Below are positions 28,227-44,930 of a DNA stretch of 50,731 nt, piece by piece. The notes under the pieces are model-generated. The model was not told the DNA's origin and did not search any database. It saw only the letters and a program-made list of their open reading frames with translations. Origin of the DNA: a phage; the sequence record PZ445412.1. One strand, given 5' to 3'. Position 1 is the first letter of the stretch. Every line of letters starts with the position of its first letter. The translations under genes were made by a program, and so were the position numbers.

Positions 28227-30200
28227 ATGATTCCTAACATTGAAAAGCAGATTGCAGATCTTGGAGAGGAAAGAATTAAGGCAATCCAGAAGCGTTTCAC
28301 GGTTGGTGAGATTGTCCCGTATGAATACCAATGCGTTGCTTACGCTGAAATTGCAAAGCGCTTGAGCAAGTATGTCGATCCGTTTTTCGTTAAAGCGGCG
28401 GTATCGGCAGGTAAAACAATAATCTTTGCTATGGTTGCGGCTCAGTGTCGGAAAATGGGATTGAAAGCGTTATTTCTGGCGCGTCAATCTGAAATCGTGG
28501 ATCAGGATTCAAAAGAGATTAGCGCCTTTGGTGTTCCGAATTCCGTTTATTGCGCTGGCCTGAATACCAAAAGCGCTTATTTCCCGATTGTTGTCGGATC
28601 GGAAGGTACTGTAATTGGTGGATTGAATAAAGCGTTAGGTGATTACGTCCCACAGGTTTTAGGTATAGATGAATGTCATCAAGTCAACTGGAATGATATT
28701 GTTGAAGCCGAGGAAAACGGCGAAAGCATAGAGCAAATGATGACGCCGAAAGGTGAACCAGTTGAAGGGCATCCATTGCTGATTGGTTCAGGACGCGCAC
28801 AATACACCATTATCATTGCAGAAATGCGCCGCCGTTGTCTTGAGACTTACGGTCATCAGTTGCGCATATTTGGAATGACCGGATCGGAATATCGCGGAAT
28901 TGAGCCGATACTTGTCGAAGATAAAAGAATTCCTGGGTTTTGGCGTGAGCAGATCACAAACATTGATACTGATTACCTGGTAAAATTTGGTTCAGTTGTT
29001 CCCACATATTTTGGCAATGTTGGTGATTTGGGTTACGACTTATCAGAATTTACGCCAGTGCATGAATTTGGCGTTGCTGATTATGACCAGAAGCAATTAA
29101 AGGCCATGAGTGACAAGATTCACCAATCAGTAACCATGACGCAGAAAATAATGCAGATGGTTCATGAGGTAATGAAAAACCGCTTATGTGCTCTTGTTAC
29201 TTGCGCTGACGAAAGGCACTGCAAAGAGGCGGCGGCGGCGCTTCCGTCTGGCACGAAATATCACATTATTACCGGAAAAACTGGAGAGAAACAGCGGCGC
29301 TTATGGCTTGAGGATGCCTATGAAGGGCGCGTGAAATACATCTTCCAGGTTCAGGCGCTAACAACTGGCGTTAACGTTCCGCCGTGGGATACTTCTGTGA
29401 TTTTGCGTAAGATCGGAAGCCTGACGCTATTAACTCAGCTTTTGGGGCGTGGTATGCGTCAATTAAAAACTTACCATAAAGAAGTATTGGGAATGCACAA
29501 AACGGATCACCTTGTTTTGGATTTTTCCGGCACGATGTTTGAAATGGGTAATTTGTATTTCGATCCTATGTTAGAGCAAGCGCAATTCCAGTTGCGTAAA
29601 TCACAGGATAAAGATCCGAAATATTGCCCGATTTGCGGCACAGAAAATTCATTCTATGCTCGCCGTTGCATTAATGAGGATGAAAACGGAAATCGTTGTG
29701 AACATTTCTGGACGTTCCAGGAGTGTGAGGATCAGATTGATGACCGCACAAAGAAAGTTATTGTAAAAGGTTGCGGCGCAAAAAATGACGTTGCTGCGCG
29801 TGTATGCCGTTGCTGTAATGTTCAGTTACGCGATCCAAATGATAACTTGTCCGGCAAGATGTACCGTAAAAACGATTGGTGCGACGTGTTAGATTTTAAT
29901 GTGACGCTGACAAAAAACCAGGCTGGCGTAATATTCTGCTACACGTTGCGTGATAGTGGCGGCGTAGAATTCAGGGCATACGAAAAATATTTCCCTGAAT
30001 CAGAACACAAGATATGCAAAACGCTTTGGACAAAGGCGGTTAGAACTCACGTTATAGATCGCCAGGCCGCAAACTTTATGATCACTTGCCGCAATGCAAT
30101 TAAGATCATGAGTTATGCGGGGCAAATATTGCCGCCAAAACGTGTTACCCATCGCAAGAACACAAAGAAAGAAGATTTGATCGCACAGAAGGAGTTTTAA
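28227..30200 (+). CDS. superfamily-2 ATP-dependent helicase with C-terminal zinc ribbons
   Basis: Walker A AVSAGKT, DExH box GIDECHQ, C-terminal CPICG...C..C and CG...CRCC pairs. Confidence 0.7.
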   Translation: MIPNIEKQIADLGEERIKAIQKRFTVGEIVPYEYQCVAYAEIAKRLSKYVDPFFVKAAVSAGKTIIFAMVAAQCRKMGLKALFLARQSEIVDQDSKEISAFGVPNSVYCAGLNTKSAYFPIVVGSEGTVIGGLNKALGDYVPQVLGIDECHQVNWNDIVEAEENGESIEQMMTPKGEPVEGHPLLIGSGRAQYTIIIAEMRRRCLETYGHQLRIFGMTGSEYRGIEPILVEDKRIPGFWREQITNIDTDYLVKFGSVVPTYFGNVGDLGYDLSEFTPVHEFGVADYDQKQLKAMSDKIHQSVTMTQKIMQMVHEVMKNRLCALVTCADERHCKEAAAALPSGTKYHIITGKTGEKQRRLWLEDAYEGRVKYIFQVQALTTGVNVPPWDTSVILRKIGSLTLLTQLLGRGMRQLKTYHKEVLGMHKTDHLVLDFSGTMFEMGNLYFDPMLEQAQFQLRKSQDKDPKYCPICGTENSFYARRCINEDENGNRCEHFWTFQECEDQIDDRTKKVIVKGCGAKNDVAARVCRCCNVQLRDPNDNLSGKMYRKNDWCDVLDFNVTLTKNQAGVIFCYTLRDSGGVEFRAYEKYFPESEHKICKTLWTKAVRTHVIDRQAANFMITCRNAIKIMSYAGQILPPKRVTHRKNTKKEDLIAQKEF

Positions 30201-30202
30201 AG

Positions 30203-30610
30203 ATGGTTAATGATAAAGGAGATTATCTGGAGTATTACGACAAATCAGATCCAGATACAAGAAAAGAAGAATCTCACCAGGTTGATTCTTACTCATGGCT
30301 TATATACGAATTCCCCATGTGGCTTGTTTGGCACACTAAAAACGAAGGGAAGAAAACCATTGGCACAGCAGTAAAAGATCAGCAAGCAGGTGTGAAAAAG
30401 GGAGTAAGCGACATTCTAATCCTGACTGGTTTTATTGGCTGCAAATATTCATTCATTGCCATTGAGCTTAAAAAAGCCAACAAGAAAGGCACAAAAGTAA
30501 GCAAGGAACAAAAGGAATTCTTACGTCGCGTTAGGGAATGCGGAGGATTTGCCGCCGTATGCTATGGTGTAGAGCAAGTAAAATTGGCTATCGCAGACGC
30601 TACAAAATAG
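30203..30610 (+). CDS. VRR-NUC domain nuclease
   Basis: GVSDILIL...IAIELKK pattern consistent with the VRR-NUC D...E.K core; follows helicase. Confidence 0.5.
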   Translation: MVNDKGDYLEYYDKSDPDTRKEESHQVDSYSWLIYEFPMWLVWHTKNEGKKTIGTAVKDQQAGVKKGVSDILILTGFIGCKYSFIAIELKKANKKGTKVSKEQKEFLRRVRECGGFAAVCYGVEQVKLAIADATK

Positions 30611-30626
30611 CACTTTTTGTTAAAAC
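30605..30626 (+). promoter_or_regulatory. conserved 22-bp box plus hairpin element
   Basis: AAATAGCACTTTTTGTTAAAAC; hairpin GGCGCA-acggaa-TGCGCC; CATAATGCAC; AGAACGAAACGGAG. Confidence 0.6.
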
Positions 30627-30681
30627 AGGCGCAACGGAATGCGCCATAATGCACCCATCAGAACGAAACGGAGAATTAACC

Positions 30682-30960
30682 ATGAAAAAGATGTTATCAG
30701 TAGTTGCTTTATCACTTGCCCTTGTCGGTTGCATGGATAAACCCAAAACATATATTTGCGGAAATGAAGCGTTTGAGGTTACAAGCGACTATATGAAAGT
30801 TGTGCAAGGCAAAAGCACAGGCGTTGTAATGGATAATATCAGCAAAAATCAATATAAGTTGTTTACGCCAATTGGAACGGCTTATTACACTGTTAACGAT
30901 AGCACCATTGATATTAAAGTTGGCGTTTATCAGCACACTCTAACTTGCGAGGTAAAATAA
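30682..30960 (+). CDS. lipoprotein (candidate Cor-like superinfection exclusion protein)
   Basis: Signal peptide with lipobox LALVGC; start MKKML at 30682 after box/hairpin element. Confidence 0.55.
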   Translation: MKKMLSVVALSLALVGCMDKPKTYICGNEAFEVTSDYMKVVQGKSTGVVMDNISKNQYKLFTPIGTAYYTVNDSTIDIKVGVYQHTLTCEVK

Positions 30961-30961
30961 A

Positions 30962-31699
30962 ATGGCTAAGGATTTTCAGGACAAAGCAACCATTGATACT
31001 TTTGAGCCGGAAATGGATTTTCATGAATTGCAACACGGCAGATATTCAGATATTGCGTTGCGTTCAGGTGGTCATTATCAGCCAGTTAGAGAAAACCCAA
31101 TGTTCAAGGTTAGCGGCAACCGTTACGCCGGAAGTAAGACACCTGATGTTGTGCGTGATTTGTGGGAAACGCCAGATGAAATTGTAGAATATTTGGCTGA
31201 ACGTTACGGCAAATACGATCTTGATGCAGCCGCAAGCGAAAACAACAAGAAATGCGATAAGTTTTACAGCAAGGAAACAAACTGCTTAAAACGTTGGTGG
31301 GGTAGCAATAAGCATGTTTGGCTCAATCCACCATACAGCAATCCAGATCCGTTTGTGTTAAAAGCAATTGAGCAGATGGAACACGGAAACCAGATTGATA
31401 TTTTACTTCCGGCTGACAACTCAACAGCATGGTTTAGCGATGCACAAAAACACGCGGCTGAAATTATCTGGATCACTGGCGAAACATGGGAAGAAGAAGG
31501 AAAACAATATTCCCGCACTGGTCGAGTATCGTTTATTTCTGGAATGACAGGTGAACCAGTTAGCGGAAACAATAAAGGAAGCGTGATTTTTATCATGCGA
31601 CAACTGAAAGAAGGTGAGCAACAACAAACTCATTATGTGCCAATTAGTGAAATTTGCCCTTCTGTTGAGAACAAACGCACAAAAGCGCGGAGTATTTAA
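30962..31699 (+). CDS. dam: DNA N6-adenine methyltransferase (phage Dam type)
   Basis: Catalytic NPPY motif (WLNPPYSNPDP) and upstream DLDAAAS motif. Confidence 0.75.
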   Translation: MAKDFQDKATIDTFEPEMDFHELQHGRYSDIALRSGGHYQPVRENPMFKVSGNRYAGSKTPDVVRDLWETPDEIVEYLAERYGKYDLDAAASENNKKCDKFYSKETNCLKRWWGSNKHVWLNPPYSNPDPFVLKAIEQMEHGNQIDILLPADNSTAWFSDAQKHAAEIIWITGETWEEEGKQYSRTGRVSFISGMTGEPVSGNNKGSVIFIMRQLKEGEQQQTHYVPISEICPSVENKRTKARSI

Positions 31700-31985: not shown

Positions 31986-32038
31986 GCCCCGCGAAAGTGG
32001 GGCATAATCATTTCAACGAAACACGATAGGGCTTTAAG

Positions 32039-32203
32039 ATGGAAATCAAAAACATTGAATACTTCAAAGATGCGCAATGGCTGGCAAGAGAGGCAATTTT
32101 CTTGCGTGATCGAAAAAATCCTATTGTTGTGTCACAGATACTTTGGAATGACGCTATGAAACTTCTTAAAAAGGCTTACGGTCATGAAAATAATGAGGGG
32201 TAA
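32039..32203 (+). CDS. hypothetical small protein
   Basis: 54-aa ORF after box/hairpin/TCAACGAAAC leader; not in the 60-aa ORF track. Confidence 0.35.
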   Translation: MEIKNIEYFKDAQWLAREAIFLRDRKNPIVVSQILWNDAMKLLKKAYGHENNEG

Positions 32204-32426
32204 AAAAGAAACATGGGATTTAGCTAAAAAAGGCGGTCTTGATGAAGGGATCGCAAAAATAGCGCAATATTTCGATATTAAAGACGTGTGCGTTATTGTC
32301 GGTGATGAAATGGCATATGTGGATGAAAAGCCGCGCAAGGTTCATCGCGTTCCGGCAATTCCGACAACAATTGACTATAAAGAAGTGATCAACAAAACCA
32401 AAGAGCAAAGGAAATATTACAAGTGA
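32184..32426 (+). CDS. hypothetical protein
   Basis: 80-aa ORF overlapping upstream gene end. Confidence 0.35.
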   Translation: MKIMRGKKETWDLAKKGGLDEGIAKIAQYFDIKDVCVIVGDEMAYVDEKPRKVHRVPAIPTTIDYKEVINKTKEQRKYYK

Positions 32427-32519
32427 AAACAATTAAATTCATGTTTGCTGTTGCCTTGCCGCCAATGCTGGCATGGTTTATGATGTATGCCGTTGTTATG
32501 AAATAAGAGGATTTGTGAA

Positions 32520-33635
32520 ATGAGTGCGGCAAAAATTACGGACGAACAACTTATTGCAGAAAGGGCGGCAGGTTTAAAACTGCGTGAGATTGCGGAAAAA
32601 TACGGAATGAGCTTGCGCCAGGTTGAGCACCGACACAGCAAATTGGCTAAACGTGGGGAAATATCAACAATCGGATCGCCTGGCTTTGCTGTAATTGGTG
32701 AATCACAGCTTAAACGTGCAAATGGTGAGGTTGTAATGACCTGGACTAAAACGCACAAAGACAAAGCACAATTAGAGGCAATCATGCAAGCGGCTATGGC
32801 TGCATTTTCGGAAGAAGTGCCGCGCGTCGAACCGCAACCGGAAAAGATTGTTGACTACTCGCAAACGCTGGCGTTATATCCGATCTTTGATATCCATATT
32901 GGCGCAATGGCTCATAAGCATGAAAGCGGTGAGAATTACGACACGGCAACGGCGGAAAACGTCATGAATGAGTTTTTCGATTATGCAGTTGATAAAGCGC
33001 CGAATAGCGAAAAGGCTGTATTGCTGATTGGTGGTGATATGATTCACAGTGACGGTCTGGAGGCTGTAACACCTGCAAGCGGTCACGTTTTGGATCAAGA
33101 TAGCCGTTACGCAAAACTTGTTTATGTTGCTATCCGCGCCACGCGTCGAGCAGTAAGCAGAATGCTGGAAAAACATAAAGAGGTTGAATTGCAGATCATT
33201 GAAGGTAATCACGACCAATCAGGAATGATCTGGCTACGTGCTGCAATGGCGGCGGCGTATGAGAATGAGCCACGCGTAAAGGTTGATGTTTCTCCGCGTG
33301 TCGTGCATCACACTCAATATGGTAAAACATTCCTGGCTTATCATCATGGTCACACTGTACGCAAACCAGAAACGCTTTTAATGATGTGTGCAGCGGATTG
33401 GCGGGAAGATTTCGGAAACTCCAATTCAATGTATGCTCATGTAGGGCATTGGCATCATCAGACCGTCACAGAAACTAGCCTGGGCATTGTTGAGGTTCAT
33501 AGCACTATGGCGGCTAAAGATGCTTATGCGGCGCGTGGAGGTTGGCGTTCACGCCGTCGAGCGGCGGTAATTATCTATGATAAGGAATATGGCGAGATAG
33601 GGCGCTTCATGTTCTACCCTGAAATGATTGCATAA
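32520..33635 (+). CDS. metallophosphoesterase with N-terminal HTH-like domain
   Basis: Calcineurin-like motifs GDMIHSD, EGNHDQ, HHGH, GHWHH; N-terminal LKLREIAEKYGMSLRQV HTH-like. Confidence 0.55.
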   Translation: MSAAKITDEQLIAERAAGLKLREIAEKYGMSLRQVEHRHSKLAKRGEISTIGSPGFAVIGESQLKRANGEVVMTWTKTHKDKAQLEAIMQAAMAAFSEEVPRVEPQPEKIVDYSQTLALYPIFDIHIGAMAHKHESGENYDTATAENVMNEFFDYAVDKAPNSEKAVLLIGGDMIHSDGLEAVTPASGHVLDQDSRYAKLVYVAIRATRRAVSRMLEKHKEVELQIIEGNHDQSGMIWLRAAMAAAYENEPRVKVDVSPRVVHHTQYGKTFLAYHHGHTVRKPETLLMMCAADWREDFGNSNSMYAHVGHWHHQTVTETSLGIVEVHSTMAAKDAYAARGGWRSRRRAAVIIYDKEYGEIGRFMFYPEMIA

Positions 33636-33746
33636 TTAAATTATCACCTAAAAAGGCTGGCTAAATGCTGGCCTTTTTTTGTTTTTGTCGTTAACATAAT
33701 CAGACTATTTTTGATATTGACTTTTTAATTTTTAAAGGATCTGGTT

Positions 33747-33962
33747 ATGCGTGAATTTATTAACTTTGCAACTTATTCAAGCGGTGGCGCTACCTTCTCA
33801 GGCGCTGCAAGTGGTCAATTACTGTTGGCGGCTCTAACATTCATATTCTTTGTTATTTTCGGCGCTATTGGCTTGTGGTTAAGGTGGCGTGACAGCAAGG
33901 CGATCCGAGAAGCGTTAGAGTGTGGAGATCTTAAAACCGCTCTTAAAATTAACCAAAAATAG
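33747..33962 (+). CDS. holin (possible pinholin)
   Basis: 71 aa, hydrophobic TM segment LLLAALTFIFFVIFGAIGLWL, charged C-terminus; directly upstream of endolysin. Confidence 0.55.
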   Translation: MREFINFATYSSGGATFSGAASGQLLLAALTFIFFVIFGAIGLWLRWRDSKAIREALECGDLKTALKINQK

Positions 33963-33974
33963 GGAGTGAATTTA

Positions 33975-34469
33975 ATGGCTATTAAAAAGACAATAGCCGC
34001 TACCATAACGGGCGCGGCTCTAATGATGGCATCGCCCTTGATTGAAGAAATTGAGGGCGTGAGGTATAAGCCTTACAAGGATATTGCAGGAATCTGGACT
34101 GTATGCCACGGCATCACCGGAAAGGATGTGATATTAGGAAAGGAATATACCAGGCGAGAATGTGACGCGCTACTTGCAAAGCATATGAAAGTTGCGGCTG
34201 ACGCTGTTGATAAAGCGGTTAAGGTTGATATTCCTATTTCTATGCGAGCGGCCTTGTACTCATTCACATTCAACGCCGGAACGGGGGCATTCAGGAAATC
34301 AACCATGTTGAAGAAGATCAACAATGGTGATCTGTATGGTGGTTGTGGCGAGCTTTGGAACTGGACATATTACCGGAACCCGAAAACGGGCAAAAAGGAA
34401 AAATCAAAGGGATTGAAGAATCGCCGCGCTGTTGAATATAAATATTGTGTAATGGATCTGAATAAATGA
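33975..34469 (+). CDS. endolysin, lysozyme type with putative SAR N-terminus
   Basis: [23 protein letters not shown] closely matches the catalytic region of P21-type SAR lysozymes; Gly/Ala-rich weak TM at N-terminus. Confidence 0.75.
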
Positions 34470-34855
34470 AAAGAAAATTACTGGCTATTATGATGTGCAT
34501 TGCTCTTTCTGGTTGTTCAGCTTCAAGCGTGTTACCTGGTCTGATTGGTAGCAAGCCTGATATAACGGCACAGGCTGGAGCGGAGAATGTGAAACAGACT
34601 GTTGGTGTAACCGCAAAGCAGGATACATCAAGCAAGCAGAAAACCACATTCAAAGAATCGGCAGTTGGCGAGGTTGACACGTCTAATAAAAAGCAGGTGA
34701 GCACTTCAAGCATTAAGGCAGAAAACATCACAGCGGAAAGAATAGAGATCCGCAATAATGATGGTCTTAATGTTCCGGCAATCGCAATGGGTATATTGAT
34801 GTTTATTGCGGGTATGTTGGCGGGTTGGTCACTGAAACGAAATAAGGCGGCATAA
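34466..34855 (+). CDS. unimolecular spanin (u-spanin)
   Basis: Lipobox LSGC at N-terminus plus C-terminal TM helix; last gene of lysis cassette. Confidence 0.65.
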
Positions 34856-44387: not shown

Positions 44388-44930
44388 ATGTTTACGATCA
44401 ACTTATGGGGAAGGGATTATGTTAATCCCTATGTTGTGACAAAACAGCGTTTCGTTATTTTCGACCTGGACGGCACATTGTCAAATGGTGAGCACCGCTT
44501 GCACCTGTTGCCAACGGTTGATTTGCACCTTACTGAAAGCTGGAGTGAGTTTAATCGCGCCGCAAAGGATGATTCACCATTCAGCAATAACATTGCCGTG
44601 TGCAATGCCATGTTTGATGCCGGATACCTGGTTATCATCCTAACAGGTCGAAGTGATGAAGTTGAATCGGAAACACGAGCATGGTTGGCTGAAAACGGCG
44701 TTTCTTTCGATTGGCTGATTATGCGCCGCGCCAGCGATAACCGGAAAGATACCGTAATCAAAGAGGAAGTTTTACGTACTATCGGACTTGATCGCATTGT
44801 CGCATGTTGGGATGACTCACCAAACGTTATTGCACACCTGCGCGGCCTGGGCTTGACGGTTTACCAGGTCATTGACTACGGAGAGCAGTTGCACGATCAC
44901 TTAAAGTCTCACGGAGTGGAGAAGTTATGA
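44388..44930 (+). CDS. HAD-superfamily phosphatase (polynucleotide 3'-phosphatase-like)
   Basis: HAD motif I FDLDGTLS near N-terminus. Confidence 0.5.
   Translation: MFTINLWGRDYVNPYVVTKQRFVIFDLDGTLSNGEHRLHLLPTVDLHLTESWSEFNRAAKDDSPFSNNIAVCNAMFDAGYLVIILTGRSDEVESETRAWLAENGVSFDWLIMRRASDNRKDTVIKEEVLRTIGLDRIVACWDDSPNVIAHLRGLGLTVYQVIDYGEQLHDHLKSHGVEKL

Follow-up and report, generated by a model that had tools for sequence, protein, structure and literature searches.

Escherichia phage DanielBernoulli is a Tls-like siphovirus (Tlsvirus, Drexlerviridae) whose complete genome of 50,731 bp, in its full length, is the window analysed here. One of its genes encodes a protein of 371 amino acids that combines a small N-terminal helix-turn-helix (HTH) module with a metallophosphoesterase (MPE) core, and for this enzyme a DNA-directed nuclease appears to be the best-supported reading. 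More specifically, the HTH-MPE protein may be a DNA-tethered, Rad50-independent Mn/Mg MPE nuclease of phage DNA metabolism, an assignment that we put forward tentatively and to which we give slightly less than an even chance. Such an enzyme could act as follows. The small N-terminal HTH would most likely tether the protein to DNA, and the domain behind the adjoining hairpin and helix would be a binuclear Mn2+/Mg2+-type MPE of the Mre11/SbcD/PdeM-like branch, which would need neither a Rad50/SbcC ATPase nor a capping domain. The most likely activity would be cleavage of DNA phosphodiester bonds, as exo- and/or endonuclease, and the most likely role that of breaking down the host chromosome and/or trimming DNA ends, which would feed nucleotide salvage together with a HAD phosphatase and a deoxynucleoside monophosphate (dNMP) kinase. 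In such a role the enzyme would be a functional analogue of the A1 protein of phage T5.

The open reading frame (ORF) extends over 32520..33635 on the + strand, begins with ATG and is a member of PHROG 704; a Shine-Dalgarno sequence, AAGAGGA, can be read 8 nt before the start codon (32505..32511, +). GenBank labels the product hypothetical protein. The start point of the window is shifted relative to record MZ501059.1, window position 32000 corresponding to record position 32536.

Architecture and conservation of the HTH-MPE protein

Conservation was read from an alignment of 50 sequences, collected in three homology searches and 28–98% identical to the query, and from two wider alignments of 122 to 140 representatives at 50% identity. 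An AlphaFold2 model of the full-length protein, built on the 50-sequence alignment, reached a pLDDT (predicted local distance difference test) of 81.7 and a pTM (predicted template modelling score) of 0.71. In this model residues 114–365 (32859..33614, +) form the β-sandwich of an MPE catalytic core, mostly at pLDDT above 88, and Foldseek comparison with the PDB supports the same assignment. The canonical motifs, all encoded on the + strand, fall on conserved columns: motif I, D124-I-H126 (DxH; 32889..32897), and motif III, G229-N230-H231-D232 (33204..33215), are invariant in all three alignments, as is H276 within the motif IV region H275-H276-G277-H278 (33342..33353); motif V, G309-H310-W-H312 (33444..33455), is invariant in the 50-sequence alignment and keeps H312 invariant in the two wider ones; and motif II, G172-D173-M-I-H176 (33033..33047), invariant in the 50 sequences, has the GDxxH form of Mre11 and was aligned to GDLLHS of TmMre11 in a profile search against the PDB. 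A further motif, S187-G188-H189-V-L191-D192 (33078..33095, +), is specific to the family and lies in a loop of lower model confidence between motifs II and III; H189 and D192 are invariant in the 50 sequences, and L191 and D192 are at least 90% conserved in the wider alignments. An earlier sequence-only reading of this DNA had proposed a calcineurin-type MPE with four clear motifs fused to an HTH. The enzyme class and the fusion are borne out by the invariant motifs and the predicted fold, and the motifs do stand on invariant columns, but they number five, plus S-G-H189-x-L-D192.

Among the 122 to 140 representatives the metal ligands are invariant or nearly so. The 50 sequences add family-specific invariant columns at W75, E135, H189, D192, R252, E325 and D334, as well as arginine and lysine positions that are invariant or nearly so at R196, K199, R206, R252, R343 and R362. 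Since the active site is invariant across a family that diverges to less than 30% identity, catalysis is under selection. How firmly can the enzyme be placed within the MPE superfamily? The 371-residue protein gives no match to the Pfam models PF00149 (Metallophos) and PF12850 (Metallophos_2), for which the family as a whole appears, by sequence comparison, too divergent: 27 of 122 relatives match Metallophos and 19 of 122 match Metallophos_2 at E<0.01. The motifs, the fold and the 27 relatives that reach PF00149 are therefore the basis of the MPE assignment. Foldseek returned 114 PDB matches at E≤1e-3, and the best 50 of these 114 are all MPEs. They are led by Mre11 structures, a DNA complex among them (4tug, E 4e-8; 4o43; 5dny; 3av0), at E-values between 4e-8 and 1e-6, with TM-scores of 0.40–0.47 and 9–13% sequence identity, followed by LpxH, Vps29, GpdQ, Rv0805, acid sphingomyelinase and PolD DP1. 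Profile searches against the PDB, NCBIfam and PADLOC assigned no subfamily above threshold; the signals below threshold, PdeM (E 9e-4, the best NCBIfam match, located at motif III), SbcD_rel_arch (E 0.12) and TmMre11 (E 0.16), all point, weakly, to the nucleases among the MPEs.

The N-terminal module consists of three helices (residues 8–16, 21–27 and 32–44) modelled at pLDDT 85–88, which together form a tri-helical HTH at residues 8–45 (32541..32654, +). Pfam HTH_24 and HTH_23 match below threshold, the latter at residues 11–39 with E 2.4e-3, under the gathering score; the winged HTH of IscR matches residues 14–74 (E 2.6e-3), and the family profile finds GerE/LuxR/FixJ-type chains in the PDB at E of about 0.2. 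In the putative recognition helix (residues 32–44) R33 is invariant among the close relatives, and R38 and K44 are at least 90% conserved. A model of residues 1–112 alone (pLDDT 71.8) shows the same three helices, and its top PDB fold matches are Lrp/AsnC, MarR, GntR, the LuxR-type DosR, LiaR, RcsB and RhlR; these top matches are all HTH or winged-HTH regulators, but with a best E of 0.07 none is significant. The signal becomes clearer across the family: the N-termini of 122 relatives match more than 15 Pfam HTH families with E-values down to 1.5e-9, namely HTH_1 (23 relatives), HTH_8/Fis (16), HTH_23 (12), HTH_50 (12), Sigma70_r4_2 (11, with the best E of 1.5e-9) and also HTH_28, HTH_30, GerE and about ten others. 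Many members are already named 'winged helix-turn-helix domain-containing protein' by NCBI. The suggestion of the sequence-only reading that the first ~50 residues are HTH-like thus finds support in a modelled three-helix bundle, the N-terminus being structured and no linker, and in the HTH families matched by relatives, and it can be proposed from the model that the HTH of the DanielBernoulli protein binds DNA. Its further likening to a terminase small subunit found no support: no TerS was found in Pfam, in PHROGs or in the PDB fold search, whose matches are the HTHs of transcription factors, and a relative with annotated genome, 95% identical over the queried 2.5 kb, encodes a TerS-TerL pair of its own at another place.

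Between the HTH and the catalytic core lies a family-specific element composed of a β-hairpin (residues 58–65 and 71–78) and a helix (82–97; the whole at 32691..32810, +), delineated from the model and the alignments, in which W75 is invariant and K77 at least 90% conserved. Hairpin and helix are conserved family-wide and the HTH is not. An exhaustive search covered 1.84 billion representatives; its matches mostly start at query residue 50–70, with 60–100 residues ahead of this point in the relatives, and the match to phrog_284 spans residues 64–358. As the matches start there despite the N-termini that the relatives carry, the HTH appears to be constant in presence and variable, or exchangeable, in type, and hairpin, helix and MPE to be the conserved unit.

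A nuclease weighed against other functions

Several known systems resemble the HTH-MPE protein in part. Mre11 and SbcD (Mre11 of M. jannaschii, T. maritima and P. furiosus; SbcD of E. coli) share with it the binuclear MPE fold, the five motifs and the GDxxH form of motif II. Unlike these enzymes, the DanielBernoulli protein lacks the C-terminal capping domain that confers DNA specificity, as only about 59 residues follow motif V, in which the model has nothing but the last strands of the core; conversely, its N-terminal HTH and hairpin are missing in Mre11. It reaches no Mre11 or SbcD family threshold, the likeness being at the level of the superfamily only, and it is not an Mre11 or SbcD. PdeM, the ligase-associated DNA damage response endonuclease, and DP1, the MPE exonuclease subunit of archaeal PolD, are alike in being small MPE nucleases acting on DNA, PdeM being the best NCBIfam match and DP1 appearing in the fold list, and some relatives are automatically annotated as 'DNA polymerase II small subunit'. 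The PdeM match, however, scores 18.7 bits against a cut-off of 150, and no ligase, Lhr helicase or PolD large subunit was found in the neighbourhood, either in the annotated relative or in a census of 43 lineages. This census covered 43 dereplicated lineages, drawn from 160 IMG/VR loci and annotated phages, with three ORFs on each side of the gene compared with PHROGs; ORF calling was crude (longest ORF, greedy selection), and its counts are per family only. IMG/VR was scanned a second time with a divergent marine subgroup as query, the first scan having given close relatives only. Neither a Rad50/SbcC-type ATPase nor a ligase occurs among the three neighbours on each side in the 43 lineages or in the annotation of the relative.

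A functional parallel may be A1 of T5 (phrog_1745), a predicted phage MPE reported to have the same two-part plan of an N-terminal DNA-binding and a C-terminal nuclease domain (PMC12916289). Escaper mutations in A1 fall in both of these domains (PMC12916289), and A1 is necessary and sufficient for degradation of the host chromosome in T5 (bioRxiv 10.64898/2026.04.02.716235). T5, like the T1-like phages, has a HAD dNMP phosphatase and a dNMP kinase, so that the T1-like phages, in which a candidate nuclease joins these two enzymes, parallel T5. The differences are considerable: A1 has 556 residues, is pre-early and is essential, whereas the HTH-MPE gene closes an early/middle operon. Homology between the two proteins was tried and rejected (hhalign probability 0.4%; BLASTP E 0.32, confined to the stretch of motif III; A1 itself matches only phrog_1745), and in the absence of sequence homology the relation is one of analogy only.

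What speaks for DNA as the substrate? A DNA-binding-type module is present family-wide, which argues for it. The genomic context is supportive as well: the gene belongs to a DNA-metabolism operon in DanielBernoulli and to a replication module in lambdoid prophages, and genes of nucleotide metabolism recur alongside it, among them a HAD_PNKP phosphatase with a dNMP kinase (see also PMC13164509), deoxycytidine monophosphate (dCMP) deaminase with thymidylate synthase, ThyX and MazG-like genes. In infections by T1 and TLS the host chromosome is broken down and its nucleotides are used again. The phenotype was described in 1981, and the authors of the TLS re-annotation state that they could not assign a gene to it (PMC11447400). 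It could be imagined that the HTH-MPE family is this host-chromosome nuclease of the T1/TLS type, a minimal Rad50-independent Mre11-like DNase with an exchangeable HTH that evolved independently of T5 A1. We regard this more specific proposal as unlikely on present evidence, if worth naming. A literature search for escape mutants or mapping of T1 gene 2.5 gave nothing usable.

A number of observations weigh against a DNA-tethered phage nuclease, and in particular against a destroyer of the host genome. In addition to the failed homology with A1, they are the following: 1) the Mre11 likeness is at superfamily level, and the non-nuclease MPEs LpxH, Vps29, GpdQ and Rv0805 score nearly as well; 2) no constant partner gene was found among the three neighbours on each side in the 43 lineages; 3) the commonest neighbours, that is lysis genes, HNH genes and integrases, mark module boundaries; 4) members are found in temperate phages and prophages as well, and as an island within the tail genes of Jersey-like phages, which suggests something other than a dedicated host-genome destroyer; 5) the retron Eco2, which is triggered by A1 and DenB, gives no defence against Drexlerviridae (PMC12916289); 6) a literature search on the PHROG 704-type HTH-MPE family returned no biochemical or genetic data for any member.

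As an alternative, the substrates could be small nucleotides or the ends of nucleic acids. The enzyme would then be a phosphodiesterase or phosphatase, for example one for 2',3'-cyclic or 3'-phosphate end-healing or a nucleotide pyrophosphatase, and would serve to remodel nucleotide pools or to repair ends instead of cutting DNA chains. GpdQ, Rv0805 and LpxH are close seconds in the fold search, and the recurrent neighbours (HAD_PNKP phosphatase, dNMP kinase, MazG-like, ThyA/ThyX, dCMP deaminase) would suit such an enzyme. For end-healing by an MPE there is a precedent, the MPE domain of Clostridium thermocellum Pnkp. Against this, no ligase is associated with the gene in the annotated relative or the 43 lineages, and a small-molecule enzyme is hard to square with an HTH that is present throughout the family; taken together, we consider an activity of this kind improbable, though it is the strongest of the competing explanations. 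One variant, the MPE as 3'-phosphatase for a kinase-only polynucleotide kinase ('PNK') encoded next to it, is ruled out, as this 'PNK' is itself a HAD phosphatase without kinase.

A second alternative puts the weight on the HTH, which would recognize specific phage sites in a late-gene switch or at an origin, with the MPE as a sensing or accessory module like the inactive MPE B-subunits of DNA polymerases. Many lineages place the gene at the early or nin end before lysis, terminase or structural genes, which is the slot of NinI and Q in lambda, and in E. coli prophages it stands directly upstream of DnaB. Moreover, the HTH type is swapped between lineages, as expected for recognition of phage-specific sites, and some members are named Rrf2-family regulator or wHTH protein in some sources. 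Yet the catalytic metal ligands are all invariant, unlike those of the degenerate B-subunits, and no repeated operator-like motif was seen around the gene, a shared 9-mer (see below) being not significant; the terminator that precedes the late genes is neutral with respect to regulation in trans. A transcription or replication regulator thus seems a rather unlikely identity.

Still less probable, in our estimate, is an anti-defence role, in which the enzyme would hydrolyse nucleotides of immune signalling (cyclic oligonucleotides, cADPR-type molecules, Np4N) or phosphoesters otherwise linked to defence. In its favour, the gene is mobile, has a wide distribution and is found at module boundaries, including the island shared with Ant in Jersey-like phages, and MPEs include cyclic-nucleotide phosphodiesterases such as Rv0805 of the fold list. 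On the other hand, the protein resembles none of the PADLOC models, and a literature search for phage HTH-metallophosphoesterase anti-defense gave nothing. The anti-CBASS and anti-Pycsar nucleases known so far have other folds. The proposal also leaves the HTH without explanation, and persistence in 508 of 522 Drexlerviridae (PMC13164509) is unlike that of typical accessory anti-defence genes. Finally, a protein Ser/Thr/Tyr phosphatase like the lambda phosphatase NinI, a PPP-family MPE of the same superfamily that likewise sits at the end of the nin/early region before late genes, a position similar to that of the Microbulbifer prophage copy after NinG and before late genes, is very improbable, since NinI has no HTH and shows neither sequence similarity nor a top-ranking fold match to the HTH-MPE protein, motif II is GDMIHSD rather than the PPP-type GDxVDRG, searches of Pfam, NCBIfam and PDB sequences gave no PPP match, and PPP enzymes are missing from the best 50 of the 114 fold matches.

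Genomic neighbourhood

In DanielBernoulli the HTH-MPE gene is the last of a co-oriented early/middle set of DNA-metabolism genes on the + strand, whose other members are a DNA helicase (28227-30200), a VRR-NUC-like endonuclease (30203-30610), a Dam-type methyltransferase (30962-31699), a small lipoprotein and three small ORFs without assigned function. Directly 3' of the HTH-MPE stop codon an intrinsic terminator with a GC-rich stem of 12 bp and a T-run (33650..33678, +; dG -17.2 kcal/mol, z -3.1, a stability that none of 200 shuffles reached) closes this helicase / VRR-NUC / Dam / HTH-MPE transcription unit. The hairpin is kept in Tlsvirus relatives, the stem of Tls carrying a compensatory double substitution, and at the corresponding position two genera further removed carry unrelated stems, likewise GC-rich and with T-runs; at three other loci a further ORF follows directly after the HTH-MPE gene. 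Behind the terminator lies a sigma-70-like promoter candidate, TTAACA-16-GATATT (33691..33718, +), a match to the consensus only, of a kind that is not enriched over shuffled sequences, and then the holin gene at 33747. Given the conserved terminator between HTH-MPE and holin, the HTH-MPE gene and the lysis cassette of DanielBernoulli meet at an operon boundary. The sequence-only reading had pictured a DNA-targeted phosphoesterase or nuclease just upstream of the lysis genes that could act in DNA end processing or host nucleic acid degradation, a reasonable view that databases already hold as a predicted annotation. With terminator and promoter-like site separating the two, the position gives no functional link, and functional coupling to the lysis cassette was rejected for DanielBernoulli on account of the strong, position-conserved terminator. 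Lysis genes do recur beside the gene in further lineages, before or behind it, which fits a position at module boundaries.

The hairpins that flank the gene have a 9-mer in common, AATGCTGGC (32464-32472 and 33664-33672), which occurs four times in the genome where 0.9 copies are expected. As an operator this sequence was discarded: four copies are reached in 2 of 100 shuffles, which is not significant, and the sharing is probably due to chance. Within the co-oriented set, an ORF of 140 amino acids (30538-30960, +) lies between the VRR-NUC-like endonuclease and the Dam methylase and overlaps the endonuclease gene at 30203-30610; its start is probably at its residue 49, which gives it a lipoprotein-like signal, MKKMLSVVALSLALVGC. 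It matches phrog_7420 and, faintly, a Cor-like superinfection-exclusion protein (E 9e-4). In Tls (locus L001, 8270-8941) the HNH homing endonuclease gene endY stands directly upstream of HTH-MPE; it is absent from DanielBernoulli (window ~32426-32520), and HNH genes recur beside family members in unrelated lineages. Elsewhere in the window (44388-44927, +) the T1-like 'polynucleotide kinase' consists of a HAD_PNKP phosphatase domain only (PF25109, E 4e-19), with a DxDGT motif and no P-loop kinase, and is weakly similar to Dmp, the dNMP phosphatase of T5 (pairwise E 8e-5); being a HAD phosphatase without kinase, it bears a misleading name. In other Drexlerviridae this 'PNK' is often the next gene downstream of HTH-MPE, and a dNMP kinase accompanies it.

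Across lineages the surroundings of the gene are diverse. The recurrent neighbours are endolysins, spanins, holins, HNH homing endonucleases, integrases, MazG-like pyrophosphohydrolases, endonuclease VII and 'PNK'. In lambdoid prophages of E. coli (loci L007-L009, 8001-9119) a copy with 66% identity is found in the order replisome organizer, Ant, HTH-MPE, DnaB and NinB, which shows exchange between virulent T1-like and temperate lambdoid phages. The Microbulbifer prophage has the gene after NinG and before a MazG-like gene, holin and terminase, and JL1 has it after the lysis genes, directly ahead of TerS-TerL. In Yersinia phage vB_YenM_22 it is followed by a HAD phosphatase and a dNMP kinase, an N4-like roseophage has it behind dCMP deaminase and thymidylate synthase, and in Jersey-like phages it forms, together with Ant, an island on the opposite strand within the tail genes.

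Family distribution and implications

The DanielBernoulli protein is an ordinary member of a family that is already catalogued under names such as DNA repair exonuclease, phosphoesterase or wHTH protein. It matches PHROG 704 'DNA repair exonuclease' almost end to end (E 1.3e-149, residues 4–370 against positions 2–389 of a profile of 390), with PHROG 284 'exonuclease' as a further match. The PHROG 704 members, among them Tls gp66, the 'DNA repair exonuclease' of T1 and KanT1 and the 'wHTH domain-containing protein / metallophosphoesterase' of Jersey-like phages, are homologous over the full length with the same HTH, hairpin and MPE, and there is no substantive difference from them; Tlsvirus members share 89–98% protein identity with the DanielBernoulli protein and have the gene in the same slot before holin, endolysin and spanin (PMC13164509). 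The name 'DNA repair exonuclease' is a prediction, and the labels of relatives conflict, ranging from DNA repair exonuclease through putative phosphoesterase, proof-reading exonuclease, wHTH protein and DNA polymerase II small subunit to oxidoreductase and structural protein.

Relatives were found by tblastn in 2036 phage records, which include T1-like phages, Klebsiella weberviruses, Jersey-like Salmonella phages, dhillonviruses, phages of Vibrio, Campylobacter, Flavobacterium and Rhodobacter, and N4-like roseophages. The exhaustive search yielded 4576 clusters at 50% identity with E≤1e-3, 993 of them with E≤1e-30. A scan of one genome per bacterial species, restricted by its exact search patterns, gave 22 loci, all but two in Proteobacteria. 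Some records invite caution about their labels or reading frames. OR786094.1, named 'Streptococcus phage MBBL140', is 87.5% identical in DNA over window positions 32051-34472 and encodes a protein 98% identical to the query; it looks like a T1/Tls-like coliphage entered under a Gram-positive host, and is probably either a contaminant or a mislabelled record. A similar labelling case is a 41-kb contig labelled Acinetobacter baumannii, whose protein is 98% identical to the homologue of a Jersey-like Salmonella phage. In Salmonella phage 36 (NC_029071.1) the homologue appears split into two coding sequences, both called 'DNA repair exonuclease', and in phage phiJLA23 (NC_047740.1) it is matched over residues 1–90 only. 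Such split or truncated homologues could be sequencing errors or natural loss, and they bear on the dispensability of the gene.

As it stands, the gene is a routine member that adds little to its family, and its value lies in pointing to a very large family that is persistent among the Drexlerviridae and fully conserved in its active site. If the protein were indeed a host-DNA nuclease, the family, with its ~4600 clusters at 50% identity, would be among the most widespread host-takeover nucleases in siphoviruses, and it would provide a second, independently evolved DNA-tethered MPE for host takeover beside T5 A1. It would also stand for a minimal kind of Mre11-like nuclease, one that does not need Rad50. 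For T1 itself the old question of which gene degrades the host chromosome would then be settled, and the link between host-DNA breakdown and the frequency of generalized transduction would be explained.

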